Shown: positions 22,178 to 53,563, counted from the first letter of the stretch. The stretch is DNA of 64,000 nt from Amphiscolops sp. MND2022 (GCA_964187785.1 OZ076418.1:4712001-4776000), one strand, 5' to 3'. Numbers and translations: made by a program. Notes: generated by a model from the sequence alone, not told the origin.

Positions 22178-24941
22178 TCTATTTGTTTCTGGGCGAATCT
22201 TTACTGCGTCTTCTTTTTTCGCCGGAAAACTTCAACAAATTGTGCTGGACAAAGTTCTTGTAAATTTTATATTTCAATTGAAACTCGATTCGGGGTGAGA
22301 ACAGGCATTAGGTGGAGCATGAGAGGGGAATGTAAGTGAATTCGTTATATAGTCGTGATTAACAACTAATATGTGGGGACGGAATGAGATGGCATCGTTG
22401 AAAATCTTTCTAAGGTTCTTCGCAGGATTGGCAACTCCAAACTTGGCTCAATTGCTGAAAAATTTTTGGAAACAGTTTGATGGGGGACTTGTGGGTAGTG
22501 AAGGCGGTTCCTACATGGCTCCAAACACGTGCAAGTTTCCCGTGGCTGCCTTTCAAAAGCTGCTTTTCTATAGGCGGAAAACAAATAGACTTACGCCTGA
22601 TTAACAGACAACCTAAACGGTATTGTTTGGAAAGCTGGGTGTTACGATCACACATTCATCTTTTTTTTCTTATTTTGAATCGAAGATCAAATAGTACCGT
22701 TTTCACAAGGGTCGTCCATTTTGAGCCGGGAACTGATAGACAATTCGTTAAGGCCGAACATCTTAGGAGCTAGTGTTGAGGATTTTGTACAGTAAATTTA
22801 CAAGAAAAACCGACTGGGGGGTTGGATTGCTGTTACATAACAGTATATAGGCATTATTAGCGTTGAAAGTGAAACAAGGACTAGAAAAACATTTTTACAT
22901 GCTTGAAAAAAATGTATGAGTGGGGAATTGGCAGCAAACTAAAATTCTAGGACTTCAAGGCCACCGCAAAAACATCCTGGGTTTAGTTCATATTGTTGGA
23001 CATGAGGGGTGAATAAAAATTGTCGAAAAATGTTTTGCCTCAAAACGAAAAAAGATTCGGCTCAGTTATTTCGCGAGCAACATTTTATCAAGGGCATTGA
23101 TAATGGCCAACGCGAGTCATCCTGGATAGTCGTTTTGTGCTCTGAAACAATCCCAAAGGCCATGACAAAAAAAGACAACTATTACAATTAAATAGGAAAT
23201 ATCTTCGAGCATGACGACAGTCTTTGATTGTATTAAGTTGCAAAGGTATTTCTGCAAGGGTTGAGGATTCAATACCAGTGTCTTAGGCGGCTGGGCGTAC
23301 GTAATCTTTCAACTCTCCACATTGACCGAAAAGTTCTTATGTTCTGGTATAGCTTTCTGAACACTCGGGATCAAAAGAGCTCAAAGATATCTGCTTTGGC
23401 TTGAACACTGGCGAATTTAATAGCAGTTTCTTTGTTGCGATGAACTTTAATGCACCCCGACTTGGCCCCTTCCAGTCAGACGAAACAACAAAAACTCGAT
23501 AACGAGAACGTTGCTTTCTTGATCCGAGATTCTCAATATAAAAAGTTACTAATATAATCGGGAAGAGCTTCCACAACTGCGACTTTGTTTCTGGTTTCTG
23601 TTTCTTCACTTCACCGAGGGCTCGAAATTTACTGGTTGCCCGTATTCATAAAAGCCATCACCAGCTAGATCGAAATCACAGATGCTTTTAAGGTAATCCA
23701 TTCTAAAGGAAATTTTTTGAAAAAAGTTTATTGTGAATATTTAATGTGTGAATCGATAGTTGAAGTTACCCCAGTTGAATAATAATTGGATGGAATGCTT
23801 TTCCATGATGAAAACCCAATTGTCTGAAACGCTAGAGTTCGTTATAGCTTCAATGCAGATCAGAATGAAGTACTTTTACTTCATGGAAAAATCTCATACC
23901 AGCAAGCTCCAAGTCTTCAAAAACAATTTACTACAGGTTCTATTTGAGTAAAAAGATCAAGTTTCCATCAATCAATCCTGATGTGCATTAAAAACAGTTT
24001 TCAGTACTGAAGCTTTTGGTGGAAGGAGATAATTCTGGGATATGGTATTTTCATACATAAATCTTTCACTAATTCTGATGATGCCTGATGGAAAAAAATT
24101 GCAACAGACTTGTTGAGCACATTGCTCTTGAGAAATTTGCAAAGGATTAATTAAACAAGAAAGGCCTTGAGAATTTAGGCAAAAGTCTGATTGAACAATG
24201 AGCCCCAAAAACAATCAACTCTGCTTTTATTTCAACTACAATATCTGCAGACGGAACTGTAAAACTTGGTTTGGGTTAGCTATTAAATTCTTTCAGTCTC
24301 ATGTCACAGTTTCAGACTAACGCCGTACTCTATGTCTTTTCATCAAAATGACAGTGAAGAAACTATAGAACGTTATAGTCTCTGAAATGTTTCATCAAGG
24401 AAAAATGAGTTCCATCAGTGTATGTTCAAATGAATGTCTCAAACATTACATGAAGCCAAAAAACACCTTTCTTCCTTCTGGCAGCACGCGGGGACCTGGT
24501 TGGGGTGGAAGGTGCTGCTGGCACGGTTGCTGCTGACTCGGGGGGAGTTTCTATTGCCGTGGGGGGACTGTATGAGGCTCGGGAACAGTCTTCTAGAAAT
24601 TGAAACAAGTTAGAAACAGCTTAGAATCTTTCGGTTTTTTTAAATTTTGTGAATAGTAAAACGAGCATGGAAGTTGTTGTATGTTCCAAATTGAGTTTCT
24701 TGCGAGGCTAACAGAATGTCAAAAAATGTTTGTCGTGTGCGACATATGGCAAATAAAAAAAAGAAACTTACCGTGAAAACTCAAAAAGAAATAAACTCAA
24801 AACTTGTAATATGTAATTTTGTCTTTTGTAATTTGCGCAGTTTTATCTTTAATATTTTCTCGCTCAGCTCTGAATTTTGAACACGCTCGAACGTGTTCAC
24901 TACCTTGTTCAGCAACGCCGCACACATTCCTTGTTTGGTCA

Positions 24942-25114
24942 TGACGTCAAATGACATCATTTTGTCGTGGACGCTACGCCTACGAATAACACATACAAAA
25001 CACTTTCGTTTGTATAGTCATTTGACTTGACGTCATATGACGTCATGCTCGCTAGCCAATCACGATAGTGATTCAATTTTATTGGCTGACGAAGCGGTCA
25101 AATTTAGTATAAAA
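24942..25114 (+). promoter_or_regulatory. Putative LTR promoter: three TGACGTCA (CRE) palindromes, CCAAT boxes, TATA box
   Basis: TGACGTCA at 24942, 25028 and 25038; CCAAT at 25056 and ATTGG at 25081; TATAAAA at 25108. Confidence 0.65.
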
Positions 25115-25364
25115 GCAGACGAAATTTTCAACTGTCAGAGCTCTTCTTTTGGAATAATACTAAATCGACAAACCCGACCACTCCAACCTCTCAATCTCTT
25201 TACACGAGTTCAACTCCCATCATCAGCGGCGCAGTATTTTTTAGTTAAAATCTTTTTCAATTTTCTTTTCGGAGCTTTCACTTTCATTTTTTCTAAGTCT
25301 TTTTCTTAACTTAAACTTAAATCAGTAATTCCCAAAATTTTACAAGTCCTGGCTCAATTCTGTC

Positions 25365-25650
25365 TTAGACAATTTTCAACGCTGCTTCAAGTAAAGCAAA
25401 TATAACTTATATTTTTGTCAAGCCTGCTTCCTAGTTGAAGTAATCCTGACTTAGACAATTTTCAACGCTGCTTCAAGTAAAGCAAATTTAACTTATTTTT
25501 TTGTCAAGCCTGCTTCCTAGCTGAAGCAATTTTGACTTGGACAATTTTCAACGCTGCTTGAAGTAAAGCAAATTTAACTTATACTTTTGTCAAGCCTGCT
25601 TCCTAGTTGAAGCGGATTCATCTTAGGCAATTTTCAACACTACTTTCGAG
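25365..25650. repeat. 86-bp tandem repeat (~3.3 copies) inside the LTR
   Basis: Units TT(A/G)GACAATTTTCAACGCTGCTTCAAG...CCTGCTTCCTAG; also present at ~45010-45225. Confidence 0.9.
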
Positions 25651-26651
25651 CCAAAACAATTTCAAGTCTTCTCTCAAGCTAGAGCAATCATTCTCTTACG
25701 TTGGAGATTCAGTTGACTTTTGACTTCGAACAGAAGCTATTATACCGTCTTTGTTCAACAAAGATTGAATAGTCCCTGCTTTATAGTGGACTCTAAACCA
25801 AAGTCTGGTGATATTCACTGACTCTAAACTGAAAACCACAGCCTCAGCTGGGTTATAAGAGACTTAAACAACTTAGCTATTGTCTGATTCTTAAAGTCGG
25901 ACCGTTCTCAACTTGAGACAAAGAGTAGCCGTATAGCGCTCTATAAAAACAGTACAAAGAAGCGTTGTTCTAAAACCAAAGAATAGCCATTCGCTATCTT
26001 TCCCAGTCCGTGACAATCGGTGGACTATAAACACCGTGCAAGCTATTAGCTGCACTTTGGAAAAGAGGCCTAACCTCTGATTATTAAAACACAACATAAT
26101 AAAAACTTTACGGCTTATTTCCTGATAACTTAATCTAATAACGTTTTCCTAGTAACTTAACTTATTTCATTTATGGATTGATATTAAACCAGATTTAGTT
26201 GTATTTTGTTTATTCAGCTTGATTTGTTTGTTTTGCTTTTGTATAACTGATATCTATTACAAGTTTAGTATAAATAGAGAAAGGTTCATTTCACCTATTT
26301 CTGAACCCAAACAATTTTTTCCCGGGTCGCAAAAATAAAGTCCTTCCGTTCGAACTCAAACCTGATATTTCCTTTGTGTAAGTGCTGGAAGGCATATAAC
26401 GAAAATTTTAAGTAGGAGAATAATTTCAATTTTCAGTCAAGAAAATAGAAGGAAAGTGAGCTAAGAGTTCACGAATTAGACAATAATTGAGGCTTATAAC
26501 TACCGAAATTCAAAGAGAAAAACTGAAAGAAGAAAAATCACTAATTTTGAATATTCTTAGAGAAGCTTTCGCTAATTGGAAGAAAGATATAGATTCATCA
26601 ATTTTCCTACCAACTTAACAAGCACCGTCACAAATTAAGCACTTCACAAAC

Positions 26652-26668
26652 TGGTGCGACCAGTGAGG
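26652..26668 (+). promoter_or_regulatory. Primer-binding site (cognate tRNA not identified)
   Basis: TGGTGCGACCAGTGAGG begins 3 nt after the LTR end, with the TGG complementary to tRNA CCA. Confidence 0.7.
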
Positions 26669-26680
26669 CAAAACCATTTC

Positions 26681-26812: not shown

Positions 26813-26817
26813 GGTCT

Positions 26818-27019: not shown

Positions 27020-27900
27020 ATGGCTCAGAACGCAGTCTCTTTTCCTGATCTAGCTTTGGACAAGTTCTCTGGGAATGACCCAGACCAAGATGTTAAATCA
27101 TTTCTTTTGACAGTCGAAAACAACATAGACTTTTCATTTGGATCACCCCCACACGATGCTGGCGAAGCTGCTAGATATCTCTTCAGAAAAAAAGCACTTT
27201 TCTCATCTCTCCTTCGCGCACCAGCTGCAGAATGGTACGAAGGATTTAACGTAGGTAACCCACTACCTACTTGGATTCAAGTCAGGACAGCTTTCATAAC
27301 TCGCTTCTCAGATGACAGAGACAAATACAGACACAGAATAACTGCTGAAAACTGTGTTAGAGGAAAAGAAGAACTAGTCAAAAATTTCTATCATAGAGTC
27401 AAACAAGCAGTAGACAAAGGATGGCCTATCGATGCCGCAGCTAATCAAAATGAGAGATGCTCAACAAAACTTGAGAAATCAGAAGTATATTGACTTCACA
27501 ATCAGAGGACTAACTCCTTCGGGACTTAAGAGGAAAGCTCATGAATATCTGATAGAACATCCAAATACAACATGGGGCAATTTCAAAGACCATGTCGCCA
27601 ACAAAGACTTGATTTATTCAGTAAGTTCGGAGTTTGTACCAAACTCAACTAATGAGCAGAACTCTAAACTAGACTCGTTAGAAAAACAAGTCAGAGAACT
27701 TTCAACTCTTCTGAAAGAATAACAAGTTAATGCTTTGAATCAAGCCAACACACGAACCAATGATGTGAACAATAAATCCAGACAGAATGCCACACGCTTC
27801 TGTCACTATTGTAGACGAAACGGGCACACTCTACAATATTGCAGAACTAAAGCTTTTGATGACGAACGAAAACGTCAGTACAATCGTGAGAACCAGCAGA
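27020..27900 (+). pseudogene. gag: gag (capsid + CCHC zinc knuckle), frameshifted with a premature stop
   Basis: KFSGNDP...PAAEWY...TW..VRTAFITRFS capsid-like segment; CHYCRRNGHTLQYC is CX2CX4HX4C; frameshift near 27460 and TAA at 27720. Confidence 0.88.
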
Positions 27901-30900
27901 TCTTGTCAACCAATTACAGTAGTGAGAAGTAAACAAAAGACAAGAACATACACTGGAGAAGAAATACCTATGCTGGGTCACACATTACTAAACTTTAGTT
28001 TTGACTCTGATGGACAACACTGTTTTCAACTCCAACTCTGGATAACAGAAACCAAAACAGCAAATTTATTGGGTATCGAATTCTGCAGAAAATATATATC
28101 CAAACTCCACTTCGATATTCCGGCAATAGAACTCAAAGACACTCCTAACACAATTTGCTGTGGCAGCCTTTGTAATACCAAACTTTATCCCTACCTGTCA
28201 CTAATCAGGGCAATACGGATACCGCACCAGATACATATCGACGCTAAGACTTCTCGTGTCTACAAATATCAACCAGAAGATGAACAAACAAATTTTGCAT
28301 CAGGGACTACTTTTATCCCTCATCAAAAAGTAGCCAACTCCGGACTGGACTTTGTGAATGTACTTTGTACGCAATCAGAACAATATCTACCATTTCTAAT
28401 GGAGAACAACAAGAATCATCAAATAACTCTTGACAAAGGAATTTTGGGATATTCATCGCTGGACATACTAGATTTCGAGCGACCAAAATACCAAATAAAA
28501 GACTGTGTTAAAATGGTTGACTGCATACTATCTGAGAATGACCCGTATAACGAATGTTTTCTACTACACTCGACACTGACCCACGAACCAGACTTCAGAG
28601 ATGGCATACGTATCATTAATGGGAACGATGATACAATCTTTGAAATTCAAACAGCCATTGCTCACTGCATATCAGCCGACGCAAAAATGAGTAAAGGATT
28701 CGCCGAAACTATCAGTAACCACATCAGCGGACTACAAGAATATTGCTACAAATCAGAAGCTTTTGTTGGATCAGTCATCCCCTTCTGGGACAATGATGCA
28801 AATAGATTCGTATACAACCTTGTCACAAAGAACAAGTTCTTTGAAAAACCTACCCTTGAGAACCTTCGGATATTACTTGAAAATATGAGAGTCCACGCCC
28901 TGCTCAACAATGTTCAAATAATAACAATGCCAAAAATTGGTTGTGGACTTGATAAACTCCCTTGGAATGAAGTACTTAAAATACTGAAAGACACTTTCAC
29001 TGACTCTGGAATTCTCATTCAAATCATCTCCAGAAACGAGCTGGATTCAAAACAGCCACCAAGCCTACGAACTCAGAAGACTATATTGAAAACGAAATTG
29101 ATAACTATGCAAACGAATGGAAAAATGAAAAGAACGAGCTAGAAACAGACTTCACCAAAGATTCAAAATCATGTCAGCCTCCTTGTAAAGAACAGTTTCC
29201 AATACTGAGACCTAAAGAGCTAAACAATGATCTCATCGACTACTATTTGCAGTACCAACCGCAGGAAATAAAAGACTTTATCAAACAATTCGATTTCCAA
29301 TACACTGACTTAGAAGATGAAGAACTTGTCATGCTGATAGATATGATCATTGACTCCAGAGATGTATATTCACAACACAAATTCGATATTGGTCGAACCA
29401 AACAGAAGTTTCACGTCACTCTGAAACCTAACTCAGAACTTCGCAAACAACGCCCTAGTAAAGTTCCACTTCATCTGAAAGACAAACTTGAAAAACTTCT
29501 CGGACAACTGCAAGAAACCGGCATCATCAGAGAAAAGGGAGACGATGACGAACTCGGCTCACTTTTTGTAAACCCCATCATTCTCTTACCTAAAGCTGTC
29601 TACGTTAAACTTGTCATTGATGCAAGATATCTGAATTCTATCACTGACCTAACAAACTACTCTTGGCCATTCGAACCAGTCCAAATGATTATGACAAGAA
29701 TCAACGGCAATTACTTCACAGCAAGTGCTCTCGTGTGCATATCACCAAGTACCCCTTAGTGAAGAAACTCAGAAACTAACTAGTTTCATCGTAGGTGGAA
29801 AACAATACACCTATCAAGTTGGATTATATGGCCTTTGTGGACTCCCTCAATGGTTCAGCCGAATGATGGCGATTGACTTCGAACCCCTAGTAAAGAAGAA
29901 ACAAGCAATCACCTATCTTGATGATAGTCTTCTCCAATCGCAAACCAAATGCGAGATGTTCACAATCATACACGAATATCACCAACTCTTTCGAAAAGGC
30001 GGACTAAAAGCCGCACCTGGCAAGACACACTTCTTCTTGAGAAAAATAAAATTCCTGGGACATGTTATATCTCAAGATGGAATTCAACCAGTAGCTAAAC
30101 GAGTACAAGACTTGAAAAATTTGAAGTCACCGGAATGCAAACGAGACGTAATGAAAGTACTCGGATGTTTAGGCTTTATAGCTGTTACATCAAGAATCAA
30201 GAAGACACTACACCTTTCAAATAGACCGAACAACACGAAACACTTTTCAACCAGATAAAAGAAAGAATCTCAGAGGATACAATTTTAGCAGTTCCTTCAA
30301 CTGAATAGCCTTTTCATATTCACGTTGACTCTTCGAATGTAGGAACTGGATGTATATTAGTTCAACAGTTTCCAGAAGGAAAACGAATAGTCTCTTTCAA
30401 CTCTCGTGTCTTTGTCAAGGCAGAACAAAAAATGTCTACCCTCCACCGAGAGCTTTGCGGTATTGTATCTGCAGACCTATGAGCATTACATAATCGGCTC
30501 TCCATTTCCAATCTACCTTTACTGAGACCACAAACCCATCCTCTACTTATGGGGACGAAAAGGACAACTTTCTCATCGGTTCTTCAAGTACCAAGTTATA
30601 ATAACAAAATTTCACAACTTGAAGATAATCTGGACGCCAGGCTCAAACTTAGCATTCCCAGATATACTTAGCCGAAATGTAACACTGTGCGACATCAACA
30701 AATTACAGCGACAGCATAAAGAAATACCGAGAGATATCATTTTATGATGAAAAGGGAGACCAGATGCATTACACTATCAAACACGAAGATAGCCAAGATA
30801 TCTCATGCAATGACTTCTTTCCAATAATATGCCAACACGGGAACGATAGACAAATTCTACACCTGGAGAATGACGGTGACGAGCAGTATATTGAAGACTA

Positions 30901-33177
30901 CATTGAAGACAATGAAGTCTTAGCTACAATGCAAAACATGACCGATTGCTTTATACTCGGCAAGACAATAAACCAATATAAACGACTTTGCTCAGATGTT
31001 TGTCCCTACTTCACAAACTACACCATCGAAGAAGAAACCTACAGCGAAATTGAAGAACAACAAGATGACGGCTACAACAGTGACAACGAAATTGCAGAAC
31101 TAAACTTCGATCAGAAGGACTCCGAATTCTTACACTTGCAAACGAATCAATCCGAAGAAACAAGTCACAAAAACCAATTCTAAAATCCAACATAGACTCA
31201 GAATTACACCCAGAGGTAGATACAAAGGAATTGATACAAAAATTGAGTGACTTTGCAAAAACTGCTGATTTAGATGTAACTACATTAGTTGAAGAACAAC
31301 TCAACGACCCAGTACTACAAAAAGTACGCAGTTGGATAAAGAAATCAGATAAGCGACCAACAAAAACACATGACAACAATCAATCTAAAGCACTACTATC
31401 ATACTTCAATAGATTCGAGCAACTCTTTATAGACGAAGAAACCAACCTCTTATGCTACAACGACACAGTTCAAGAAACAAACAAGACTGAGATGAAATAA
31501 TGTGTTCCCCTATCACTGTTTCTACCACTTTTTAAACTTGCTCACACACACAGTCACAAGGGTCATCCCGGAATATTCAAAACCTTTGAAAATGTTAGAC
31601 AACTTCTTTTGGCCAGGACGATACAAATGGATTGTTTATCTCAGAAGATTGCATTGAATGCCAAATCAATAAGTCAAAACGTCATGACTTACACGAAGCT
31701 CCATTGGAACAATGGGGAGAACTTGAAACTACACCCTTCAAAACAATTCATATAGACCATAAAGGCCCGCTTAGGCCTAGTAGCAATTCGAACAATCATT
31801 GCTTAGTAGTAGTTGACGCGTTTTCAAGGTTCATTGGTGTCTACCCAGTTAAAGACACTAGCTACTATCACTGCATTAGAAAAATGGATCACATCTTATG
31901 GCATTCCTCAGAAAATAATACACGATAACGGGAAAGCATTTATCAACAGTGACTTCATCAACTGGACTAAAGAATTCGGAATAACTCTTGCACCACGAAC
32001 AACATACCATGGACAAACGGAAAAGTAGAAGTACAAAATCAGCACCTTACACGATATTGGAGAAACTTCACTAACGAGTCAGGTAACAATTGGTCAAAAC
32101 TAGCACCGAAGTTTGCATTCGCTCATAACACAAGCGTAAACTACACAACAGGACTTACCCCATATGAAGTAGTGTTCGGGACAAAACCACAAGTTCCTAT
32201 GACGTTAAAACTTGGACTAATACGAGACAAAAATCTTGCGATCTCGCAGATCCGAATATTGCGAAGGATTGAAACCCCATACACACAGCGAAAATCAGCT
32301 ATCGAACAAATCCCTGGATCGATTACTCAGACCACAACTTTCAGACGAACTTATTGCTCGCGAAAATGACTTCAAACGAATCTATTCGTCAACCTATCAA
32401 CGATGCCGACAAATCACTTCTAAAGCACACGAATACAGGAACCGATTCAAACTCGGACGACCTATCAACATTGGACAAAAAGTATTCTTAGAGAATCACA
32501 CTGCCGACTTGAGCAGATCACAAAAATTAAAACAATTACGTGTTGGCCCTTTTACAGTCACTAAACAAATAACAAATACGACCTACGAAATTCAAGAGGA
32601 CGCTAATCCTGATAATATCAAAGTTACTCATCGGAATCACCTGATTGAATACTTTCCTAAAGAGGAAAGACTCCCTCCTTTAATCACTAACTACGCGCCG
32701 CCTATAACAAAAGATAGTGATTTCTACAAACATTTAGTGCAGTCGCAAATTAATGACTATAATTCAAACCAACAAAGATTTTCCCTAGATGTAATGCCTT
32801 TTATCATATCGCCGCTACAAGAAAAAACTAACATTCACGAATTGAACAAAAATCACGCTGCACTTTCACCTAACGCTGATTCAGGAATTCAATCTCCTTC
32901 TACGCCTACCAATGATGATCACAATTATCAAAATCGAACTATTTCACCATTGCCGCCGCTACAAACTCCTATACTCCCTATGACTCCTATGCCTATTCGT
33001 GTTCCTACTATTTTGAGGACAACACCGCAATTTCATGAAGCTGAACAATCTACTTCTTCATCGTCAAAAAAGAGAAATAAAGTTGCTGATATTACATCAA
33101 AAATAAAAGCAAAATACAAACGCTCCGATCCTGATAGCTCACTACGGAAATTAGAAAGAAGGGGATATAAAGATTAA
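27900..33177 (+). pseudogene. pol: pol: partial protease, dUTPase-like spacer, macrodomain, RT, RNase H, integrase with GPY/F tail; multiple disablements
   Basis: PR C-half (TYTGEEIPMLG...NLLGIEF), with no catalytic DxG segment visible; RT LVIDARYLN, YHQVPL, TYLDD, FLGHVIS; RH HVDSSNVGTG, ELCGIV, DHKP; IN HxxxGH/CIEC, IHIDHKGP, HDNGKAF, NGKVEVQN; VGPFTVTK. Confidence 0.92.
28600..29034 (+). CDS. TARG1/OARD1 (Poa1p-like) macrodomain embedded in Pol
   Basis: IAHCISADAKMSKGFA...YNLVTK...KPTLENL...MPKIGCGLDKLPW closely follows recalled OARD1 LAHCISEDCRMGAGIA...YYLITK...KPTYENL...MPRIGCGLDRLQW. Confidence 0.9.
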
Positions 33178-36100
33178 ATTATAAAGGGAAAGGGAAACAA
33201 AAATTATAAGGAGAGATTTCCGATTAACGTAACAAAAACGCAAATACAACAAATATCTATACATATATACAATCAGGGAAGCAAGGGCCCAATGGTTTCC
33301 ATTTCCATGTAAGCTTGTTCAACTAGGAAATTCACAAATTGCTGCTGGTTCCCCATCTCCCAACGCACCACTAACTCTCGCTTCGCCAATGGGGACAAAG
33401 CCAAATACGAAGTTCGAATTGTCTCTAACTTGAAGAAAAACACCTCTCCCACTGAGGACGCTCAACCACTGAAACAGAACAACTTGTATATAAAAGAGGA
33501 AAAATTGACTTCTACTTGACAGCACAAGTACAATCACATCACTATACATCATACGACTATAGAGAAGTACCAAAAAGGTATATTAAAAAACAAAAAGACA
33601 TTCTTACGAGGAGTTCCAGTGACAATTCCCAAAATTGCCTGAAAACGATCACTAAGATCGACAGGAATAGCTGCATCCATCCCCAACATCGGACGACGAC
33701 TATCAGCTATTACCTGCTTGAGTGATCTTAATTCGTTTTGACAGATAATTGCCGGCCATACATGTTCCCCATAATCTACTACAGGAATCATATCTGACGG
33801 AAGAAAATGCGGATGAACGACAGGAGGATTGAGAGCCATATAAGTCTTAAAACACACAGATTGAATTTTCACTTTCAGCACCCCTCTACCTCAAAAATTT
33901 CCCAGCTACCCAACCCAAAAATTTGCGAACGCACAAACCGAACAAAATTCACAACTTTTCTTTTTCGTTCAACGGCGGTGGGACTACTTTGTAGTTATAT
34001 AGTCAGTAGAAATCAAAAAAAAACAGAAATTAACACCCGAAAAACACCCGACCTAACAGCCCAGAAACAGCAGATAAAATGAAGAAAACAAAGAAGAAAA
34101 ACAACAAAAGCCCCAATAAACAATCTCTACCCATCTGTGTTATACTCACATTGTATCTTTTAATCTAAACAAATGTCACATTTGCTTCCTTTAATTTACG
34201 CTTTTGTTGAAATAAAAGAAAAGAAAATCTTTTGTTAAACTCTCTTTTGTCAGTTGAAGGTTAACGTTTTATCTTTGTTCATTTTCAGATAGTCATCTTT
34301 TCAACTCTCCTCTTCGAATTTAGCTATTGTTCATAATAACATATTTTTCTTTTCAGCTAGCAATAAACAAATTTGCTCAACTTACCTTTTCTCTGCTGTG
34401 ACCGAAAATAATTTCTTCTTAGCTTTTTAATTACCTTTCATTTTAGCTGCCAAGCTCTTCAACCTCACACTTATTCAATAGTATAGATTATTCCCACTAG
34501 CAAGCTCCGCTGTTGCCAACGGAGACGAATTATAAATTCTCTTTTAACTCCTTAATTACCTTTTATTTTAGCCGCCAAGCTCTTCAACCTCTCACTTAAT
34601 CGATAACATAGAATATTGCCTCTTACAAGCTCCGCTGTTGCTAACAGAGATGAATTCTCTTTTAACTTTAACTCTTTAATTATCTTTTTTTAACTACCGA
34701 CGAATTCAACTAATGATTTTTGCCCCCCAAGCTCCTTTGTTTTGAGCAAAAAGTAAATTTTGAACTAGTTCTTTAGCCATCGCTTTTGTAAGATTCTAAA
34801 ATGAATTTTACAGAGTAAGTCGAAGCGCATGGTTTTGTTTGTATTTTAGCAAAGCTTACAACTACACAATCAACTGACGAATCTAGCAGCAAATGTACCT
34901 CAAGATAAACAACGACTTCTACAGGATAATAAAATCAGAGTTAAGAAATCAAACTTTTCACGTCCTTCTACAACACCATCAGGCTAAAGAAGACTGCTGA
35001 TTTAGATGTAACTACATTAGTTGAAGAACAACTCAACGACCCAGTACTACAAAAAGTACGCAGTTGGATAAAGAAATCAGATAAGCGACCAACAAAAACA
35101 CATGACAACAATCAATCTAAAGCACTACTATCATACTTCAATAGATTCGAGCAACTCTTTATAGACGAAGAAACCAACCTCCTATGCTACAACGAGACAG
35201 TTCAAGAAACAAACAAGACTGAGATGAAATAATGTGTTCCCCTATCACTGTTTCTACCACTTTTTAAACTTGCTCACACACACAGTCACAAGGGTCATCC
35301 CGGAATATTCAAAACCTTTGAAAATGTTAGACAATACTTCTTTTGGCCAGGACGATACAAATGGATTGTTTATCTCATAGAAGATTGCATTGAATGCCAA
35401 ACCAATAAGTCAAAACGTCATGACTTACACGAAGCTCCATTGGAACAATGGGGAGAACTTGAAACTACACCCTTCAAAACAATTCATATAGACCATAAAG
35501 GCCCGCTTAGGCCTAGTAGCAATTCGAACAATCACTGCTTAGTAGTAGTTGACGCGTTTTCAAGGTTCATTGGTGTCTACCCAGTTAAAGACACTAGCTA
35601 CTATCACTGCATTAGAAAAATGGATCACATCTTATGGCATTCCTCAGAAAATAATACACGATAACGGGAAAGCATTTATCAACAGTGACTTCATCAACTG
35701 GACTAAAGAATTCGGAATAACTCTTGCACCACGAACAACATACCATGGACAAACGGAAAAGTAGAAGTACAAAATCAGCACCTTACACGATATTGGAGAA
35801 ACTTCACTAACGAGTCAGGTAACAATTGGTCAAAACTAGCACCGAAGTTTGCATTCGCTCATAACACAAGCGTAAACTACACAACAGGACTTACCCCATA
35901 TGAAATAGTGTTCGGGACAAAACCACAAGTTCCTATGACGTTAAAACTTGGACTAATACGAGACAAAAATCTTGCGATCTCGCAGATCCGAATATTGCGA
36001 AGGATTGAAACCCCATACACACAGCGAAAATCAGCTACCGAACAAATCCCTGGATCGATTACTCAGACCACAACTTTCAGACGAACTTATTGCTCGCGAA

Positions 36101-38730
36101 AACGACTTCAAACGAATCTATTCAACCTATCAACGATGCCGACAAATCACTTCTAAAGCACACGAATACAGGAACCGATTCAAGCTCGGACGACCTATCA
36201 ACATTGGACAAAAAGTATTCTTAGAGAATCACACTGCCGACTTGAGCAGATCACAAAAATTAAAACAATTACGTGTTGGCCCTTTTACAGTCACTAAACA
36301 AATAACAAATACGACCTACGAAATTCAAGAGGACGCTAATCCTGATAATATCAAAGTTACTCATCGGAATCACCTGATTGAATACTTTCCTAAAGAGGAA
36401 AGACTCCCTCCTTTAATCACTAACTACGCGCCGCCTATAACAAAAGATGGTGATTTCTACAAACATTTAGTGCAGTCGCAAATTAATGACTATAATTCAA
36501 ACCAACAAAGATTTTCCCTAGATGTAATGCCTTTTATCATATCGCCGCTACAAGTAAAAACTAACATTCACGAATTGAACAAAAATCACGCTGCACTTTC
36601 ACCTAACGCTGATTCAGGAATTCAATCTCCTTCTACGCCTACCAATGATGATCACAATTATCAAAATCGAACTATTTCACCATTGCCGCCGCTACAAACT
36701 ATACTCCCTATGACTCCTATGCCTATTCGTGTTCCTACTATTTTGAGGACAACACCGCATTTTCATGAAGCTGAACAATCTACTTCTTCGTCGTCAAAAA
36801 AGAGAAATAAAGTTGCTGATATTACATCAAAAATAAAAGCAAAATACAAACGCTCCGATCCTGATAGCTCACTACGGAAATTAGAAAGAAGGGGATATAA
36901 AGATTAAATTATAAAGGGAAAGGGAAACAAAAATTATAAGGAGAGATTTCCGATTAACGTAACAAAAACACAAATACAACAAATATCTATACATATATAC
37001 AATCAGGGAAGCAAGGGCCCAATGGTTTCCATTTCGTCAATTTCCATGTAAGCTTGTTCAACTAGGAAATTCACAACTTGCTGCTGGTTCCCCATCTCCC
37101 AGCGCACCACTAACTCTCGCTTCGCCAATGGGGACAAAGCCAAATACGAAGTTCGAATTGTCTCTAACTTGAAGAAAAACACCTCTCCCACTGAGGACGC
37201 TCAACCACTGAAACAGAACAACTTGTATATAAAAGAGGAAAAATTGACTTGTACTTGACAGCACAAGTACAATCACATCACTATACATCATACGACTATA
37301 GAGAAGTACCAAAAAGGTATATTAAAAAACAACAAGACATTCTTACGTGAGGAGTTCCAGTGACAATTCCCAAAATTGCCTGAAAACGATCACTAAGATC
37401 GACAGGAATAGCTGCATCCATCCCCAACATCGGACGACGACTATCAGCTATTACCTGCTTGAGTGATCTTAATTCGTTTTGACAGATAATTGCCGGCCAT
37501 ACATGTTCCCCATAATCTACTACAGGAATCATATCTGACGGAAGAAAATGTGGATGAACGACAGGAGGATTGAGAGCCATATAAGTCTTAAAACACACAG
37601 ATTGAATTTTCACTTTCAGCACCCCTCTACCTCAAAAATTTCCCAGCTACCCAACCCAAAAATTTGCGAACGCACAAACCGAACAAAATTCACAACTTTT
37701 CTTTTTCGTTCAACGGCGGTGGGACTACTTTGTAGTTATATAGTCAGTAGAAATAAAAAAAACAGAAATTACCACCCGAAAAACACCCGACCTAACAGCC
37801 CAGAAACAGCAGATAAAATGAAGAAAACAAAGAAGAAAAACAACAAAACCCCCAATAAACAATCTCTACCCATCTGTGTTATACTCACATCGTATCTTTT
37901 AATCTAAACAAATGTCACATTTGCTTCCTTTAATTTACGCTTTTGTTGAAATAAAAGAAAAGAAAATCTTTTGTTAAACCCTTTTTTGTCAGTTGAAGGT
38001 TAACGTTTTATCTTTGTTCATTTTCAGATAGTCATCTTTTCAACTCTCCTCTTCGAATTTAGCTATTGTTCATAATAACACATTTTTCTTTTCAGCTAGC
38101 AATAAACAAATTTGCTCAACTTACCTTTTCTCTGCTGTGACCGAAAATAATTTCTTCTTAGCTTTTTAATTACCTTTCATTTTAGCTGCCAAGCTCTTCA
38201 ACCTCACACTTATTCAATAGTATAGATTATTCCCACTTGCAAGCTCCGCCGTTGCCAACGGAGACGAATTATAAATTCTCTTTTAACTCCTTAATTACCT
38301 TTTATTTTAGCCGCCAAGCTCTTCAACCTCTCACTTAATCGATAACATAGAATATTGCCTCTTACAAGCTCCGCTGTTGCTAACAGAGATGAATTCTCTT
38401 TTAACTTTAACTCTTTAATTATCTTTTTTTAACTACCGACGAATTCAACTAATGATTTTTGCCCCCAAGCTCCTTTGTTTTGAGCAAAAAGTAAATTTTG
38501 AACTAGTTCTTTAGCCATCGCTTTTGTAAGATTCTAAAATGAATTTTACAGAGTAAGTCGAAGCGCATGGTTTTGTTTGTATTTTAGCAAAGCCTACAAC
38601 TACACAATCAACTGACGAATCTAGCAGCAAATGTACCTCAAGATAAACAACGACTTCTACAGGATAATAAAATCAGAGTTAAGAAATCAAACTTTTCACG
38701 TCCTTCTACAACACCATCAGGCTAAAGAAG
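31261..38730 (+). repeat. Internal tandem duplication: copy 1 31261-34992, copy 2 34993-38730
   Basis: Near-identical ~3.73-kb copies with junction AAAGAAG|ACTGCTG; both contain integrase, the Pol tail and the downstream spacer. Confidence 0.95.
35230..36907 (+). pseudogene. Second (duplicated) integrase/Pol C-terminus
   Basis: ORFs 35440-35664, 35549-35764 and 35972-36907 mirror those of copy 1. Confidence 0.9.
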
Positions 38731-38831
38731 TTTATCACTGTACCTCCTACGTCAATTCACTGGGACTACTTTCATCACCTATTCCTTTTTGTTGGAGCAA
38801 TCCCCTTCGATGTCTTCAGAAACGAAAATAA
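38631..38831 (+). CDS. Accessory ORF, 66 aa, unknown function
   Basis: ATG-initiated, preceded by a TTTTAG acceptor-like site, and ends 9 nt before the next ORF. Confidence 0.4.
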   Translation: MYLKINNDFYRIIKSELRNQTFHVLLQHHQAKEVYHCTSYVNSLGLLSSPIPFCWSNPLRCLQKRK

Positions 38832-38840
38832 TGGTATTTA

Positions 38841-39197
38841 ATGATGAACATAATTTTTGATGAAGGCGAAATTGATGAAGTAGAATTCAACTGCCCTTGG
38901 AAAATAACAACTCCTTCAGGCAATTCCGAAAATTTTATAATTACCAAACTTAGGTGGTCACAAATATCACCTTGTTTCATCTCCGTGACACTACACCCCA
39001 CTAGCGGCAAAAATGAAGTAACTACCTTTGAAGTCGCAGAAGATAGTTTTCTTGAAGCCCAACTTTCTAAAGCACTAAGCGAATACCTTCGGAATCCAGA
39101 ACAACACGTTGAACAGTATCACCTCCACGTTCTTGGGGAGCTAACTGATACAATAGCCCCATTGATGTATTCAGAAAACACTGACAAAAGCAGCTAG
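38841..39197 (+). CDS. Accessory ORF c1, 118 aa, unrecognised domain (paralogue 1)
   Basis: Aligns by eye with c2: EVxFNCPxKITTPSGxxENFII...QLSxALxxY...PExH...LHxLGE. Confidence 0.75.
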   Translation: MMNIIFDEGEIDEVEFNCPWKITTPSGNSENFIITKLRWSQISPCFISVTLHPTSGKNEVTTFEVAEDSFLEAQLSKALSEYLRNPEQHVEQYHLHVLGELTDTIAPLMYSENTDKSS

Positions 39198-39199
39198 AT

Positions 39200-39499
39200 A
39201 TGAACTTTCACCGTAATAACGAAGTTACCGAAGAAGTCAATTTTAACTGCCCCTTTAAAATAACTACTCCTTCAGGCATCACTGAAAACTTCATTATCAT
39301 CAGACTCAAGTTGTCCTTTACCAAACCCAGTTTCATTTTGATAACAATACACCCTGTAAATAATAAAAGCAAAGTCTCCACTTTAGAAATCGCTAGTAAT
39401 AGATTCCTCCGAGAACAACTATCTGAGGCTTTGGATGATTACGCTGAAGAACCAGAATCACATATCACCCAATTTCAACTCCACATCCTTGGAGAGTAA
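39200..39499 (+). CDS. Accessory ORF c2, 99 aa (paralogue 2)
   Basis: Starts 2 nt after the c1 stop; same conserved motifs as c1. Confidence 0.75.
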   Translation: MNFHRNNEVTEEVNFNCPFKITTPSGITENFIIIRLKLSFTKPSFILITIHPVNNKSKVSTLEIASNRFLREQLSEALDDYAEEPESHITQFQLHILGE

Positions 39500-39530
39500 G
39501 CCGACACAACAGCAGCATAAAGAAAATCGA

Positions 39531-39653
39531 ATGAGCTTCAGCTTACGTGAGCAAATCATTAGACAAGTCTGGATCAGGAACATCCTCCCACAACTACACC
39601 CTCAGGTATCTAGAAATCAACTTCCTCAAAACTTAACCCGAAAACGACAATAA
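39531..39653 (+). CDS. Accessory micro-ORF, 40 aa, basic C-terminus
   Basis: MSFSLREQIIRQVWIRNILPQLHPQVSRNQLPQNLTRKRQ, packed tightly between c2 and c3. Confidence 0.35.
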   Translation: MSFSLREQIIRQVWIRNILPQLHPQVSRNQLPQNLTRKRQ

Positions 39654-39661: not shown

Positions 39662-40060
39662 ATGTTCATTCACAATCTCTGGGAAGAAGACGCAATTGAG
39701 ACAGTTAAACTAAAACTTCCAGTATCGATATACAGTTTAATCGACCCCATCAAAAGCCCTGAACTACTAATCATTAAAGAATTGCAGTGGTCATACCGAT
39801 ACCAGTTCTGGCTGACAGCTAGAGGCTATACAGTATTAAAACCAAAAACTAAAGTCTCCATAAGAGTAGAAGAGAAAACGAAATTCTTTGCCGAATTAGC
39901 CATTGCTTTATCAACCTATATTGACAGTCCTGAAACGAACATACAACCCTTCGACCTACCACTCCTAGACGAATTGTCTTCTTTTATGGAAACAGGACTG
40001 GGTTCCTTCGAAGAATTCTACACTGCTAAAATAAAAGAAATCCTCAGCTTGCAAAAATAA
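39662..40060 (+). CDS. Accessory ORF c3, 132 aa (diverged paralogue 3)
   Basis: ETVKLKLP...LIIKELQWS...ELAIALSTYIDSPETNIQPFDLPLLDEL parallels the c1/c2 pattern; AATAAA follows at ~40114. Confidence 0.65.
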   Translation: MFIHNLWEEDAIETVKLKLPVSIYSLIDPIKSPELLIIKELQWSYRYQFWLTARGYTVLKPKTKVSIRVEEKTKFFAELAIALSTYIDSPETNIQPFDLPLLDELSSFMETGLGSFEEFYTAKIKEILSLQK

Positions 40061-40146: not shown

Positions 40147-40874
40147 GCAAGACACGGTAACGATCTTAGTATCAAACTCTGCCGTGTATTAATAACTCCC
40201 TGCTCTCATTTTTCATCGATCTAAAATAGATCACGTTTCTCTAGCAGGAAGGCACGGGTTCTGGACGTGCGTATTCAATTTTATCCTTGCAAGAAGACGC
40301 GGTAACGATATCTGTATCAATCTCTGCCGTGTATAAATAACTCCGTTGCATAGCTCAACGAAGATACGGTGTATTGACGTATATTACAATTTTTGTCACA
40401 AAGTTTGACAAAGACACGGTAACGATCAAACGACGGTTTGCATCAAACTCTGCCGTGTATAAATAACTCCCTGCCTTTATTCTTTTCATTGATCTAAACT
40501 GGCCATTTAGAGCATTTTTTCTTTGGTAGGAAGACACGGGTTTTGGACGTGTAGCCTTGCCTTTACTTAACTTTTTTTAACTCTCTCTTTCTCAGGCAAG
40601 AAGAGACGGTAACGATCTTAGTATCAATCTCTACCGTCTATAAATAACTCCCTGCTCCTATTTTCTTTTCTTCTTTGTCTCAAAGAGATCCTTTTTCTTT
40701 AGCAGGACGACACAGGTTTTTAGACGTGTGCTACATTACCTTGCAAGAAGAGACGGTAAAGACCTAAGTGTCAAACTCTGCCGTCTATAAATAACTCCTG
40801 GCTACTCCTCACTTTTGTCTGTTTCAAACAGAACACTTTTCTAAAGCGGGAAGACACGGTATCTAGACGTGTAT
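40147..40874 (+). ncRNA. Array of five covarying three-hairpin structured modules (unclassified cis-acting RNA candidate)
   Basis: Modules at ~40147, 40289, 40409, 40596 and 40743, with compensatory changes in all three stems. Confidence 0.65.
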
Positions 40875-41155
40875 TCAAAAGAGCCTTTCACGAAAAGGAC
40901 TATCATCCATTTGCTTTTGACTAAATTGTCAATTTTCAGCAGAATTCATTCTTGCTCTCTTTTCAGTTCAATTTGAACAAATCATCTGTATTGCCAAGTG
41001 CTACAGATTTCTCGCTGCTCTATTGAAAGCAAAGCGGCTCTTCTCATTGCTTCATCGAAAGCAAAACATTCTCTTCATTTCAAGGTTAGCAAGTCTACCT
41101 TTCTATTTCTAAACCGTTTATAGTATTTTCGGAGTACCGTTTTCATTAGTAGATA

Positions 41156-43289
41156 ATGGATAGTGAAAAGATATACTGTAAATATTTGGTTACTTTCATT
41201 TTGATACTTTCAATAAATCCCATCTACACCGACAAAAAGCAGCCTATACTGGATGATATCGCACCTACAGTCACAGTCTCACATTACGATTGCAGTGAAA
41301 TGTCAGAAAACAATCTCTACTCTCTCAACCAAGTCAAACCCTACAACGTGGCTCCTGAGAACATAGACATGAGCTATGCCAAAATCAAGATGTATACAAA
41401 ACATTTTCGAACAGAGATTAACGCTACCATATGCAGCGTCAAACATCAGAGAAACAGATTCTATTGTGGAATGCATGACCATTCCAGCATCGATATCAAA
41501 CAAAAGACAATTACCTCCTATCTCGATTTAACGCCTGCACAATGCAGACTTGCAGCTGAAGGATCACCAATAACTCTACTAAATCATCAAATTACAATGA
41601 AAAAAGGGATTATTGAACAACATCTTAGATGGAATGGCGACGCAGACGACACATTTAAAAATGAATGTGATGGCTTTGAGTGGATTGAAAAAGATACTTT
41701 CGAGACTCACATCCAAGACATTACTCTGAATGTCAAACTCTAAGATGGAACTATAATGAATAGAAATGGACAACCTCTACCCTGCAAACTAGACGAACTG
41801 GGATGTGACAGCACTTCACTTGACCCATATGCTTATGTGTGGGACAATCCAGACAATTGTATTCTTACCGTACTGAAAGAAGATTACGTAAACATGCTCA
41901 AAATTGACGATCAATACTATATTGTTAGCCGAAACGATTCAGAAAACAAATACCTCTTTGAAATCAAAAACAGACCACAAAAGTTTTGTAATAAACCGTC
42001 AGATGTATATCCTACAACTTATGAATCTTTGTTTGTTGCCATCCTTTATGGTGGATTCGACATGAAAACAGGACGAAATATGATTCAACAAGAAGACAAA
42101 GTCCACAAGATGGTCTATTCCCCTAATAACCAAGAAAGAGATGAACCAGGTCATAGCAAACTCTGGGTTGCCAGTAACCATCATTCAAACCCATATTTTG
42201 GAACATGGTTGAACGTGGACTACGAATTACAACAGGCAACTAAACTGGACTATCTTTTCTTTGAGAGCTCCAGAGCGCTCAAAGCCTCAGAACTTCATCT
42301 TTTAAAAAATCAGTGTGAACAAGAACGATCGCACATACTCACTATTCTAATGCTTTCACTTGAAAACTCAAGACTAGCTGGATATATGATAACTGGAAAC
42401 AGATCAATGTTCTTAGAAAATGATGGAAGCCTTTCATGGCTTTACTCTTGTCCTCTAGTCAGATACCCTCTTCATACGATGAACGGGTGCTACGATAAAA
42501 TACCCATCTTTTACAAAGGACAAATCAAATTTGTAGATCCCATCACAAGGCAAACTTTACCTGATGCAATGCCTCAGAAATGTTCGGATCACATAAAGAA
42601 CCTTTTTCAAATGGACATGGACGATAAGAACTCTTGGTTCTCACTAACACCACAGATCACACAGAGATAGACCTGCTATCTTTTCGCCAAAAGATGTAGC
42701 ACCATTCACAAGGGACAAGTTCCCTCAATCAATCAACGCTGGAATGTACACGAAAGGCCAGCTAACTGAATTTTGGGACAACATCCTCATGAGTTCTGCG
42801 TCGAAGAATGCCTTACAAAAGTTCACAAGAAAACTCATTGTCCCTTCACAATCAAAGAATGGACCTGGAGGATACACATACTAGGCACCCAAAATGGATT
42901 TCATTGTTGATAACATGATATCTCCTGGTTACTTCGAAAACAAATTTAGACAAACATTTGGCACAATTGGATATTGGCTAGAAAAATATTTTATTTGGTT
43001 TGCAGTTTTCCTTTTTATAAAATTTATTATTGATGTGACAGTAACTATCGTCAGAGCATTCGAGATACACCGACTTACTGGAGCATCTATTGGATTTGGT
43101 AAAATCCTACTCTCTGCAACTTACAATCTATTTATGGTTTCCATCTTTCATTCGATGTTCAACCCCACTACAAAAGATGTTCCAATGACAACATTCAGCA
43201 CTGACAACCAAGATGCCTCTGAACACATCTATCCTGTCATAAACCGTCTACCACCTACTAATCGTTTAGATACAATATCTCCTATTTAA
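41156..43289 (+). pseudogene. env: env-like glycoprotein resembling chuvirus (Jingchuvirales) G / class III fusion proteins; two stops and one frameshift
   Basis: Signal-peptide-like N-terminus; HYDCS...LYSLNQV; CSVKHQRNRFYCGMHDH; LTPAQCR; AGMYT..QL; C-terminal hydrophobic segments. TAA at 41741, frameshift at ~42663, TAG at 42882. Confidence 0.82.
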
Positions 43290-43314: not shown

Positions 43315-44772
43315 ATGACCGACCACACTTCTCTTTCATCAGATCTGGAACTTCTCTCAAAAGAAACTCTAACAGAGAAGGATATACTCGATTTTCCTAG
43401 GTTTGATATCACCTCAGGCGAATCTCCTATTCCTCAACAAACACTTAATCAAACTCTCTTAGAAGGCACTATTACTCCTCCAAACCGCCCTAATACATTT
43501 ATCTTTAACGGCAGTATTAAAAAGAAGAAAACTCAATATTCGTTGAGACAAGCACTTGGAAAACAAAAAAAAAGTGAAGAAGCCGCCGAAAATTATTCAA
43601 AAACGAGAAACCCCAGAATTCATTACAACCTCCACTATACACTTAGAGAAGACGTCAATCAGTGGAAAATTATTTTCTGGGATTCAAGGAGACAAGAATT
43701 TACTACTGAAAACACCGTTCTTAAGAACCAGAGACTATCAGTACCCCTCGGGCTATCTCTGCTTTCATTTGAAAACAAAATGAAAAAACAATTAATAGAA
43801 GAACTCAACCTTAGATTAGCCGCCATGGAAAATGAAATTACAACACTACAAAATCAAATAACAAATCTCAGCCAACCTACATACACCAACGACGACATCA
43901 CCCAGATGAAGATGCTTATTAGCAAGTTCCCAATTAGCAACCTCAAAAACGCACAATATCTGCATGCAACACAATTACAAGTTGCAAACCTTTCCGAACA
44001 ACTGGAACATGAAAGGAATCTACGAAGACAACAAGATAGAAATATTCAGCAACTTCAAACTAATATTCAAAACCTTCAGACTATCATTCACGAGAAGTTA
44101 ACTACAACACAATCAGTAGAACAACCTGTAAATACTCCTCTCTTTACCCCTCCTTCAACTGAACCCGAATCAACAGATGCTCAAAAACAACTTGCTGAAC
44201 TAAAACCCCCTAAAAGACTAACAATGGATCTTTATGATCGTATTCACAGCATTGATTGCGGAAGAAACAAAAAGCTAATCTGGAGAATTAGCTCCTCCAG
44301 CCTTATGTTTGATAGCGCAAAGGCTGCTGAACTAGAAAGGCAAAAAGGCGTCGACCCGCACCCCAAAATACCTTGTAGTTTTCACAGCCCTCCATTTCAC
44401 ACTTCAACTCACGGGTACCGCTTTGATATGAAATTTTATCCTTATGGATGTTCTCCTGCTACTGGAGAAAGCGCTTCACTAGTCATCAACATCCTTCCTG
44501 GCGAATTCGACCCAATCCTCTCTTGGCCTTTCAAACTAATCTTCCGAATTTATGTAATCAATTTGAGTGAGCCCAGTGATATCTGGACAAAAATAGTAGA
44601 TCCAAAAGACAACCAAAATTCAGCTTGTTTTATATGACCTTGTACAAGCTATGGGAACCCGAGCATATGCTTCCCCTTTCTGATCCCACAGAGCCAACTC
44701 TTCAAAAGCAACTCCCCATTCATTCTGAATGATACGATGTTCATCGAAGTCAACCTGGAAGAATCAGAATGA
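43315..44772 (+). pseudogene. Retroelement-encoded coiled-coil + TRAF-C (MATH) protein without RING, 485 codons with one internal TGA
   Basis: Coiled-coil heptads, then LIWRIS...FHSPPFHTSTHGYRFDMKFYPYG...GEFDPILSWPFK...F(R)P...FILNDTMFIEV, the TRAF-C signature. TGA at 44635 lies where the conserved FxRP arginine is expected. Confidence 0.88.
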
Positions 44773-44827: not shown

Positions 44828-45473
44828 TGTCGTGTGCGACATATGGCAAATAAAAAGAAAGAAACTTACCGTGAAAACTCAAAAAGAAATAAACTCAAAA
44901 CTTGTAATATGTAATTTCGTCTTTTGTAATTTGCGCAGTTTTATCTTTAATATTTTCTCGCTCAGCTCTGAATTTTGAACACGCTCGAACGTGTTCACTC
45001 CCTTGTTCAGCAAATTTAACTTATATTTTTGTCAAGCCTGCTTCCTAGTTGAAGTAATTCTGACTTAGACGATTTTCAACGCTGCTTCAAGTAAAGCAAA
45101 TTTAACTTATATTTTTGTCAAGCCTGCTTCCTAGCTGAAGCAATTTTGACTTGGACAATTTTCAACGCTGCTTCAAGTAAAGCAAATATAACTTATACTT
45201 TTGTCAAGCCTGCTTCCTAGTTGAGTAAAATTTTAAGTAGGAGAATAATTTCAATTTTCAGTCAAGAAAATAGAAGGAAAGTGAGCTAAGAGTTCACGAA
45301 TTAGACAATAATTGAGGCTTATAACTACCGAAATTCAAAGAGAAAAACTGAAAGAAGAAAAATCACTAATTTTGAATATTCTTAGAGAAGCTTTCGCTAA
45401 TTGGAAGAAAGATATAGATTCATCAATTTTCCTACCAACTTAACAAGCACCGTCACAAATTAAGCACTTCACT
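44828..45473 (+). repeat. 3' LTR with two internal deletions (646 bp)
   Basis: Matches 5' LTR segments ~24731-24914, the 86-bp repeats and ~26402-26648; the promoter block is missing. Confidence 0.9.
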
Positions 45474-45802
45474 TGTTTAAGTTGCAGGAGTTCATGACAG
45501 TTTGGAATGTCCTTATGATATTTTATATTCAGAATTTAAAGTCATATACCAATTTTTGAACTCGTTTTTATTATTCAACTTCATCAATGAAAAACTTATT
45601 TAAAACACGTGATTTGACTTTTATATTCGTGTGAACTAAAAGTAAATTCTATTAGATTTTTCGACTGAATCTCGATATAAGTTTTACCTTATTCGCAGAG
45701 TGGGCAAATCACCAAAGTTCTGAAAAAGACATTTGGAGAAGCTGATGACACGATATCATCAAAGTTAATGATCGCATTTTGGGGAGGTTGCCTAAATCGT
45801 GA

Positions 45803-53560: not shown

Positions 53561-53563
53561 CCC

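Follow-up and report, generated by a model that had tools for sequence, protein, structure and literature searches.

The window, that is, the whole 64,000-nt stretch of DNA that was analysed, contains one LTR element of 20.7 kb that is bounded by a 4-bp target-site duplication (TSD) and carries an envelope glycoprotein gene (env) in its interior (Table 1). The two LTRs were identical in 636 of 646 aligned columns (98.5%). Every ORF of the element was found on the same strand, the base skew was uniform throughout, and self-comparison gave no second LTR pair inside the element or around env. No tRNA gene was detected in the 64-kb window, and the 8-mer of the PBS-like sequence was absent from those supplements of PMC13524379 that were available. 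A gap of 4.2 kb, holding three small ORFs, separates pol from env. The two copies of the internal duplication are 98.6% identical (28 mismatches and 8 gaps), and the duplication may be real or an assembly artefact; 125-nt repeats were seen within it at 34427-34688 and 38166-38427. In this copy none of gag, pol, env and the TRAF-like gene is intact. With LTRs that are ~1.5% apart, these breaks would fit decay after insertion or, in part, sequencing error.

Table 1. Positions of the element's features within the window.
Feature	Position	Strand	Basis or remark
Left target-site duplication, TGTT	24727..24730	.	Matching 4-mer at 45474-45477
5' LTR (TGT...ACA), internal 86-nt tandem repeat	24731..26648	+	Three blocks common to 3' LTR
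PBS-like sequence starting TGG, 3 nt past the LTR	26652..26668	+	Read from sequence
gag, in three pieces, one CCHC knuckle	27020..27932	+	PF03732; knuckle from ORF list
pol with numerous frameshifts: putative protease region, macrodomain, RT, RNase H, integrase	27769..33177	+	Pfam
TARG1/OARD1-type macrodomain ahead of RT	28585..29025	+	PDB 2lgr, E 1e-21
Internal tandem duplication of 3.74 kb, integrase and following region	31258..38730	+	Copies 31258-34992 and 34990-38730
Small ORF a, 118 aa, uninterrupted	38841..39197	+	Paralogous to b and c
Small ORF b, 99 aa, uninterrupted	39200..39499	+	54% identity with a over 95 aa
Small ORF c, 132 aa, uninterrupted	39662..40060	+	25% identity with a over 101 aa
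Diverged direct repeats upstream of env, non-coding	40149..40878	.	Self-BLAST, 67-88% identity
env, class III (gB-type, PF24664) glycoprotein gene	41156..43289	+	Broken by two stops and one frameshift
TRAF-like gene, helical N-terminus and MATH, no RING or zinc fingers	43780..44772	+	PF21355, E 1.1e-15
3' LTR, without two internal blocks of the 5' LTR	44828..45473	+	Last base differs from 5' LTR
Right target-site duplication, TGTT	45474..45477	.	4-mer equals the left one

The surroundings of the element were also annotated. Pieces of a VPS35L-like host gene at 18568-20505 (+; PDB E 3.2e-42) indicate a eukaryotic host. A broken non-LTR retroelement with an endonuclease, an RT and C-terminal C2H2 zinc fingers lies at 48978-52903 (-), and a Tc1-like transposon with 59-nt perfect inverted ends occupies 61046-63095, including an open transposase frame of 344 aa at 61428-62462 (-). 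Tandem arrays were found at 11443-14441 (226-nt units), 46603-47143 (156-nt units) and 53493-56734 (units of about 1078 nt), and a dispersed, MITE-like family of short inverted repeats with arms of 41-126 nt at 1937-22084. Between the PBS and gag of the element, two short hydrophobic ORF-like stretches at 26639-26970 (+) share the motif EDPDY and could be small membrane ORFs; no Pfam family scored above its cut-off for these stretches.

The affiliation of the element was determined from its termini, its domains and their order. Paired LTRs of the type TG...CA were present together with a short TSD and a PBS, the last base of the 3' LTR being different. The pol domains detected by Pfam were RVT_1, RT_RNaseH, Integrase_H2C2, rve, SH3_Tf2-1 and Integrase_p58_C, those of the integrase being scanned in the duplicated copy. 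They follow the order RT, RNase H, integrase, which excludes Copia and is common to BEL/Pao. Gypsy elements are marked by RT_RNaseH, Integrase_H2C2, SH3_Tf2-1, Integrase_p58_C and Retrotrans_gag. From this set RT_RNaseH, Integrase_H2C2 and Integrase_p58_C scored above cut-off, and SH3_Tf2-1 and Retrotrans_gag below; the gag match to PF03732 (E 1.8e-4) had 22.1 bits against a cut-off of 24.1. For the aspartic protease expected ahead of RT, no Pfam match was obtained in 27769-28401 at E<=0.1. The natural Pol protein P0288, with which the pol of the window is colinear at 81-94% identity up to 31135, had Ty3 as its best PDB match (E 1.3e-46, against 5e-23 for foamy virus), in a set of comparators without a BEL/Pao RT.

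The BEL/Pao superfamily has its own Pfam domains (Peptidase_A17, DUF1758, DUF1759 and DUF5641), three Cys-His motifs in Gag and a TSD of 5-6 bp. The gag and pol fragments and the natural Pol proteins P0288 and P0289 matched none of these Pfam domains at E<=0.1, the broken gag has one CCHC motif, and the TSD measures 4 bp. A BEL/Pao identity was rejected on the Gypsy-type domains of pol and the lack of any BEL-type family at E<=0.1. Judged by its domains, their order and the TSD, the element is classified as Ty3/Gypsy. The preliminary description had assigned the glycoprotein to a Gypsy element as its env, and this assignment is upheld by the Gypsy-type pol domains and by the one LTR pair that encloses the gene.

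Within pol, the macrodomain sits between the protease region and RT; the match to Pfam Macro was under the cut-off. TARG1 enzymes can be described by the pattern TKx(30,35)Px[IL]GxGxD, which holds K84 and D125 as catalytic residues (PMC6397177, as far as available). The pattern was found at 28825-28953 and in all five sequences tested, i.e., those of the window, P0288, P0289, P0290 and P0291, the last four being the only matches among the 130 candidates of the macrodomain search. P0290 is a DNA ligase and not a retroelement protein. Both P0288 (415 members) and P0289 are natural Pol proteins that contain the macrodomain. In P0291, an unrelated Gypsy-type Pol, it is located between RNase H and integrase, so that macrodomains occupy two positions in Gypsy pol, in two lineages. 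The domain is most likely a putative ADP-ribose eraser, encoded as an accessory function that would act on host defence or cell-death signalling. Macrodomains are among the domains annotated for insect Gypsy pol in databases. In the literature reached, which extended to few subscription journals, did not include Repbase and took in the available part of PMC4695847, no paper describing a macrodomain in Gypsy pol was found. Given those annotations and the reach of this search, the combination may already be in print.

The env ORF, with a putative signal peptide, an ectodomain and a transmembrane (TM) segment, is located downstream of the Gypsy pol and within the LTRs. It extends over 2134 nt (~710 codons) from an ATG at 41156 to a last stop at 43287-43289. 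Two stops, at 41741-41743 and at 42882-42884, interrupt it in frame, and its frame shifts near 42,665. The present copy is unable to encode its protein. The preliminary description had reconstructed a protein of ~710 aa with a signal peptide, an ectodomain, a TM segment and the motifs YDC, YCGMHxH and GxYT, and this reconstruction was confirmed, with the signal peptide as a putative one: YDC was located at residue 44, YCGMHDH at residue 103 and GMYT within the piece encoded in the second frame. The preliminary description took the three motifs as typical of chuviral G proteins, which they may be. The exact string YCGMHxH is not family-wide; it was absent from many env relatives, which show WHCG. 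The hydrophobic core at the N-terminus reached a 9-residue hydropathy of 2.96 at residue 12, and an internal stretch also reached 2.73. At the C-terminus a single TM-like stretch was present, with a 19-residue hydropathy of up to 2.2. Three N-glycosylation sequons were found within the first 505 residues. A furin-type R-X-K/R-R site was found in none of P0001, P0002 and P0003, and env does not show the hallmark of the F-type proteins of insect errantiviruses and of baculovirus F, namely a fusion peptide preceded by a conserved furin site.

The first piece of env matched the Pfam family PF24664 (Monjiviricetes_fusion) with an E-value of 5.6e-27 and 94 bits against a cut-off of 27, and the second piece matched the end of the same profile weakly (E 0.035). 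A protein database search gave 371 env homologues among 3330 candidates. PF24664 was present in 115 of the 120 best-listed of these 371, which are ENA proteins, and 22 of the 120 were at least 680 aa long among the matches listed. The closest homologue among the matches listed was P0003, an uninterrupted protein of 698 aa with 91% identity; its cluster comprises 290 sequences, a size that does not equal copy number since these are proteins without DNA context. An alignment was built from 82 of 269 listed matches, with long ones favoured and P0003 first. Fourteen cysteines were retained in 89-99% of its covering rows, and the window copy keeps 13 of them. A profile made from 33 env relatives reached 1984 representatives at E<=0.001, of which 324 stood at E<=1e-30, and the relatives formed a continuum of identity from 69% down to 22%. 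At the level of sequence the env family is deep and under constraint because its relatives span this range of identity and are so numerous at E<=0.001. The phage collection contained no match to env. Sequence-profile searches of the PDB with the env alignments returned no match in one case and, in the other, one portal protein (E 0.24). No gB or G protein was reached in the PDB by sequence profiles, and the link to gB is thus structural only.

The structure of the intact relative P0003, 91% identical to the env of the window, was modelled as a monomer. The model had a mean pLDDT of 77.3 and a pTM of 0.47, and it consisted of long beta-hairpins (residues 54-286), a central helix of 46 residues (343-388), a beta-rich part up to ~491 and C-terminal membrane helices. 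When the model was compared with the predicted viral structures of the BFVD, the best row was the G protein of Tacheng tick virus 4 (Chuviridae; E 4.6e-32). The next rows were an unnamed entry, a chu-related virus (E 1.3e-30) and a xinmovirus (E 3.8e-30), and further down stood Drosophila unispina virus 1 (Xinmoviridae; E 6.4e-29) and a qin-related virus (E 4.7e-28), the latter with the highest TM-score. Several further chu-like names occur among the first rows, and herpes gB enters the list at rank 19. The leading chu-, xinmo- and qin-related G rows were 14-16% identical to P0003, with E-values within four orders of magnitude.

Comparison of the model with solved structures led to herpes gB throughout. 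It filled 33 of 33 Foldseek rows among the matches listed and 49 of the 50 VIA rows listed, the last being Mokola virus G; the best gB match in VIA had a Z-score of 11.7 with 410 residues aligned at an rmsd of 14.7. Rows 1-5 of a wide search over 48,161 chains were all gB, and domain IV of pseudorabies gB aligned with the model over 155 residues at a Z-score of 8.6 and an rmsd of 3.3. Two coronavirus S2 chains at Z 4.1-4.2 in the wide search were set aside as background level. The global TM-scores of the model were low (0.2-0.46) and the rmsd values large, which probably stems from differences at domain hinges. No F-type or baculovirus F proteins stood among the matches listed in the BFVD, Foldseek and VIA comparisons. 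A class III, gB-like fold is well supported for the predicted structure of P0003. The preliminary description had proposed such a fusogen; its best matches among solved structures were herpes gB in all three PDB comparisons, and the outcome named beforehand as contrary to it, F-type or non-fusion proteins as the best structural matches, did not occur. The qualifier 'chuvirus-type' used in the same description held in part. Membership of PF24664 and the likeness to chuvirus G agree with it, but a specifically chuviral character is not borne out: the term is too narrow, given that the G proteins of a xinmovirus and of a qin-related virus score almost equally and that all are 14-16% identical.

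Between env and the 3' LTR lies the TRAF-like gene, which is interrupted by a premature stop at 44635-44637. Its frame is open from 43315, and the 155 extra codons at 43315-43779 have a coding-like base pattern and gave no match. Sixteen homologues were found among 6074 candidates, 15 of them at 70-100% identity, and several uninterrupted relatives measure 325-330 aa. The C-terminal TRAF/MATH domain scored above the PF21355 cut-off, and all 28 PDB matches of the relative P0126 were to TRAF1-6, with TRAF5 as the best (E 1.6e-14). TRAF2-6 carry an N-terminal RING and zinc fingers. Both are absent from the TRAF-like protein, the first 150 aa of which contained 1-2 cysteines in the seven of seven relatives checked. 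Most likely it is a putative RING-less adaptor decoy, again an accessory gene that would act on host defence or cell-death signalling.

The three small ORFs upstream of env are paralogous to each other, as none of 1000 shuffles reached the score in any of the three pairs, and no family or fold could be matched to them. Two other ORFs, at 38631-38828 and 39435-39650, were rejected as paralogues of a (the score was reached by 361 and 126 of 1000 shuffles, respectively). Small ORF a gave no Pfam match, no PDB sequence match below E 0.3 and no BFVD match at E<=0.001, and its model (pLDDT 59) had no clear fold match. Likenesses of this model to PilZ (best Z 5.1, rmsd 4.2, 76 residues aligned) and to SAS-6 were rejected as background.

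Env, pol and the TRAF-like gene of the window diverge comparably from their nearest uninterrupted relatives (about 81-94%). Such relatives exist for env (P0003, 290 members), for the macrodomain-containing pol (P0288, 415) and for the TRAF-like gene (P0126, 104), where members are not to be equated with copies. The physical linkage of the three genes was seen at one locus, the relatives being proteins without DNA context.

Taken together, the locus very probably represents one copy, now decayed, from a large family of Ty3/Gypsy LTR retrotransposons that carry an HSV/gB-type env; in the operational terms of Chary & Hayashi it would be an 'ancient errantivirus'. In intact copies of such a family, Env would be made from its own transcript and enter the secretory pathway, and Env trimers would form on budding Gag particles. 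By analogy with the Drosophila errantiviruses, which have an F-type Env, these would then fuse the particles with neighbouring cells, probably in the direction from soma to germ line. No gH/gL-like partner was recognised in the element. With neither such a partner nor a furin site, a self-contained trigger would be likeliest, and a self-sufficient one such as low pH is suggested by analogy with rhabdovirus G. The G protein of rhabdoviruses is triggered by low pH. Intact copies of the element may be infectious. The association of env with Gypsy would be old and not the result of a recent capture from a chuvirus. More speculatively, the macrodomain might strip inhibitory ADP-ribose marks, and the RING-less TRAF might compete with host adaptors.

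Compatible with this reading is a direct and independent uptake of env from a chuvirus by the Gypsy lineage, in parallel to the mosquito BEL/Pao element Anakin. Tacheng tick virus 4, the best BFVD match of P0003 (E 4.6e-32), belongs to the Chuviridae, several of the first rows have chu-like names, and several Gypsy lineages contributed to env-carrying elements according to the available part of PMC13524379. The near tie with a xinmovirus, Drosophila unispina virus 1 and a qin-related virus, at 14-16% identity to all, and the continuum of env's own relatives from 69% to 22% nevertheless make such a separate chuviral origin quite improbable. We also consider it unlikely that env travels with the element without making its particles infectious, be it for membrane contact or cell-cell transfer, for receptor interference or as a passenger. 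The signal peptide, every part of the ectodomain, the cysteines and the TM segment are conserved across great divergence, and large clusters of full-length env copies exist; a passenger would not retain these. What speaks for a non-infectious role is that the gH/gL on which herpes gB depends is not visibly encoded by the element, that the furin site is absent, and that env homologues of at least 680 aa made up only 22 of 120 among the matches listed. Solo chuvirus-like glycoproteins have also been proposed to be antiviral in mosquitoes (PMC7642597, available part).

An accidental association, with the glycoprotein having arrived as a viral insertion or within a separate, nested BEL/Pao element, might be suspected from the 4.2 kb between pol and env and from the rearranged state of the locus (the 3.7-kb duplication and the LTR deletions). 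Gypsy fragments without clear capture have been described near such glycoproteins (Dezordi et al. 2023, PMC10084718, available part). Here, a single LTR pair with its TSD encloses everything, and no second LTR pair or BEL-type domain lies inside. Strand and base skew are the same throughout, and env, pol and the TRAF-like gene are similarly diverged from uninterrupted relatives. A nested insertion was rejected in view of the missing internal LTR pair and of ORFs that all lie on one strand, and an accidental association as a whole is highly improbable.

Returning to the reading as a gB-type errantivirus, a wider picture can be drawn, which we offer as a tentative and rather doubtful extension. 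The element would be a 'complex' errantivirus that combines a self-sufficient class III fusogen with a counter-defence set, namely a TARG1-type enzyme stripping ADP-ribose from element proteins or cDNA, a RING-less TRAF that blocks the host's innate or death signalling, and a protein present in three versions whose fold is unrecognised. Gypsy pol would have acquired macrodomains on two occasions or more (ahead of RT in the present element, and in P0291 between RNase H and integrase), and ADP-ribosylation would thereby be indicated as a defence that invertebrates use generally against retrotransposons. Such retroelement envs, instead of having received Monjiviricetes G, may also be the reservoir from which it came.

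By itself, the env finding changes little, since a class already published gains one further example with clear boundaries. If the macrodomain and the TRAF-like gene are selected in env-bearing Gypsy elements, invertebrate retroelements would have evolved accessory genes, as RNA viruses and complex retroviruses have done. Both TRAF signalling and ADP-ribosylation would then become testable as defences against transposons. The deep env family, with relatives down to 22% identity, provides material for asking whether class III fusogens passed from retroelements to negative-strand RNA viruses or the other way.

HSV/gB-type env genes are known from Gypsy elements across animal phyla (Chary & Hayashi, eLife 2026, PMC13524379). 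In the part of that work that was available, ENV_HSV is reported for 221 of 1512 elements, chuvirus-like baits brought up 114 elements, the chuvirus-like glycoprotein known from mosquito BEL/Pao is noted to adjoin gypsy pol as well, and the entry mechanism of gB-type elements is given as unknown. Like those elements, the present one has a Ty3/Gypsy gag-pol-env arrangement between LTRs, with an env that combines a signal peptide, a gB-like ectodomain, conserved cysteines and a TM segment. The furin site is not always retained in them and is absent here. Relative to the descriptions available in the paper, the present element differs in its 4.2-kb gap with three ORFs, its TRAF-like gene after env and its macrodomain before RT; the words 'macro', 'TRAF' and 'accessory' do not occur in its main text. 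Its inclusion rule asked for uninterrupted gag, pol and env. All three are broken in the window copy, but uninterrupted env and pol relatives exist. The pre-filter of that screen allowed 1 kb, with a manual extension of 3-5 kb in some taxa, and layouts with a 4.2-kb gap could escape screens in which env must lie near pol. Acoel names were absent from the text and the seven supplements that were available, and our literature search found no paper on env-bearing Gypsy elements in acoels.

Anakin (Dezordi et al. 2020, PMC7642597, available part) is likewise an LTR retroelement with a glycoprotein related to Chuviridae G. It is a BEL/Pao element of mosquitoes, whereas the element described here has a Gypsy-type pol, a 4-bp TSD and an env that is 14-16% identical to the nearest viral G models. 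With the Monjiviricetes G proteins of PF24664 (Chuviridae, Xinmoviridae and relatives), env has the Pfam family, the size, the topology and the predicted class III fold in common, but it is encoded by a reverse-transcribing element, and no preference for one virus family is established.

The combination of Gypsy with a gB- or chuvirus-like env is thus already known, and the less ordinary part of the element is its cargo. For the TRAF-like gene there is precedent in the planarian Burro elements (Burro/GYPSM1; PMC6431247, available part), which are also large Gypsy elements with an env-like region and a MATH_TRAF_C domain, the latter in a separate accessory ORF in one species. Burro carries a dUTPase between PR and RT, whereas the enzyme before RT is a macrodomain here, and the env of Burro is gypsy/F-like and lies in frame between gag and pol, whereas here a separate, gB-type env is followed by the TRAF-like gene downstream. 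Capture of extra ORFs is also shared with the LTR elements of bdelloid rotifers (Rodriguez et al. 2017, PMC5408684, available part), in which these are enzymatic; the bdelloid cargo comprises a dUTPase, a GDSL esterase, a DEDDy exonuclease and a paramyxovirus-type env.
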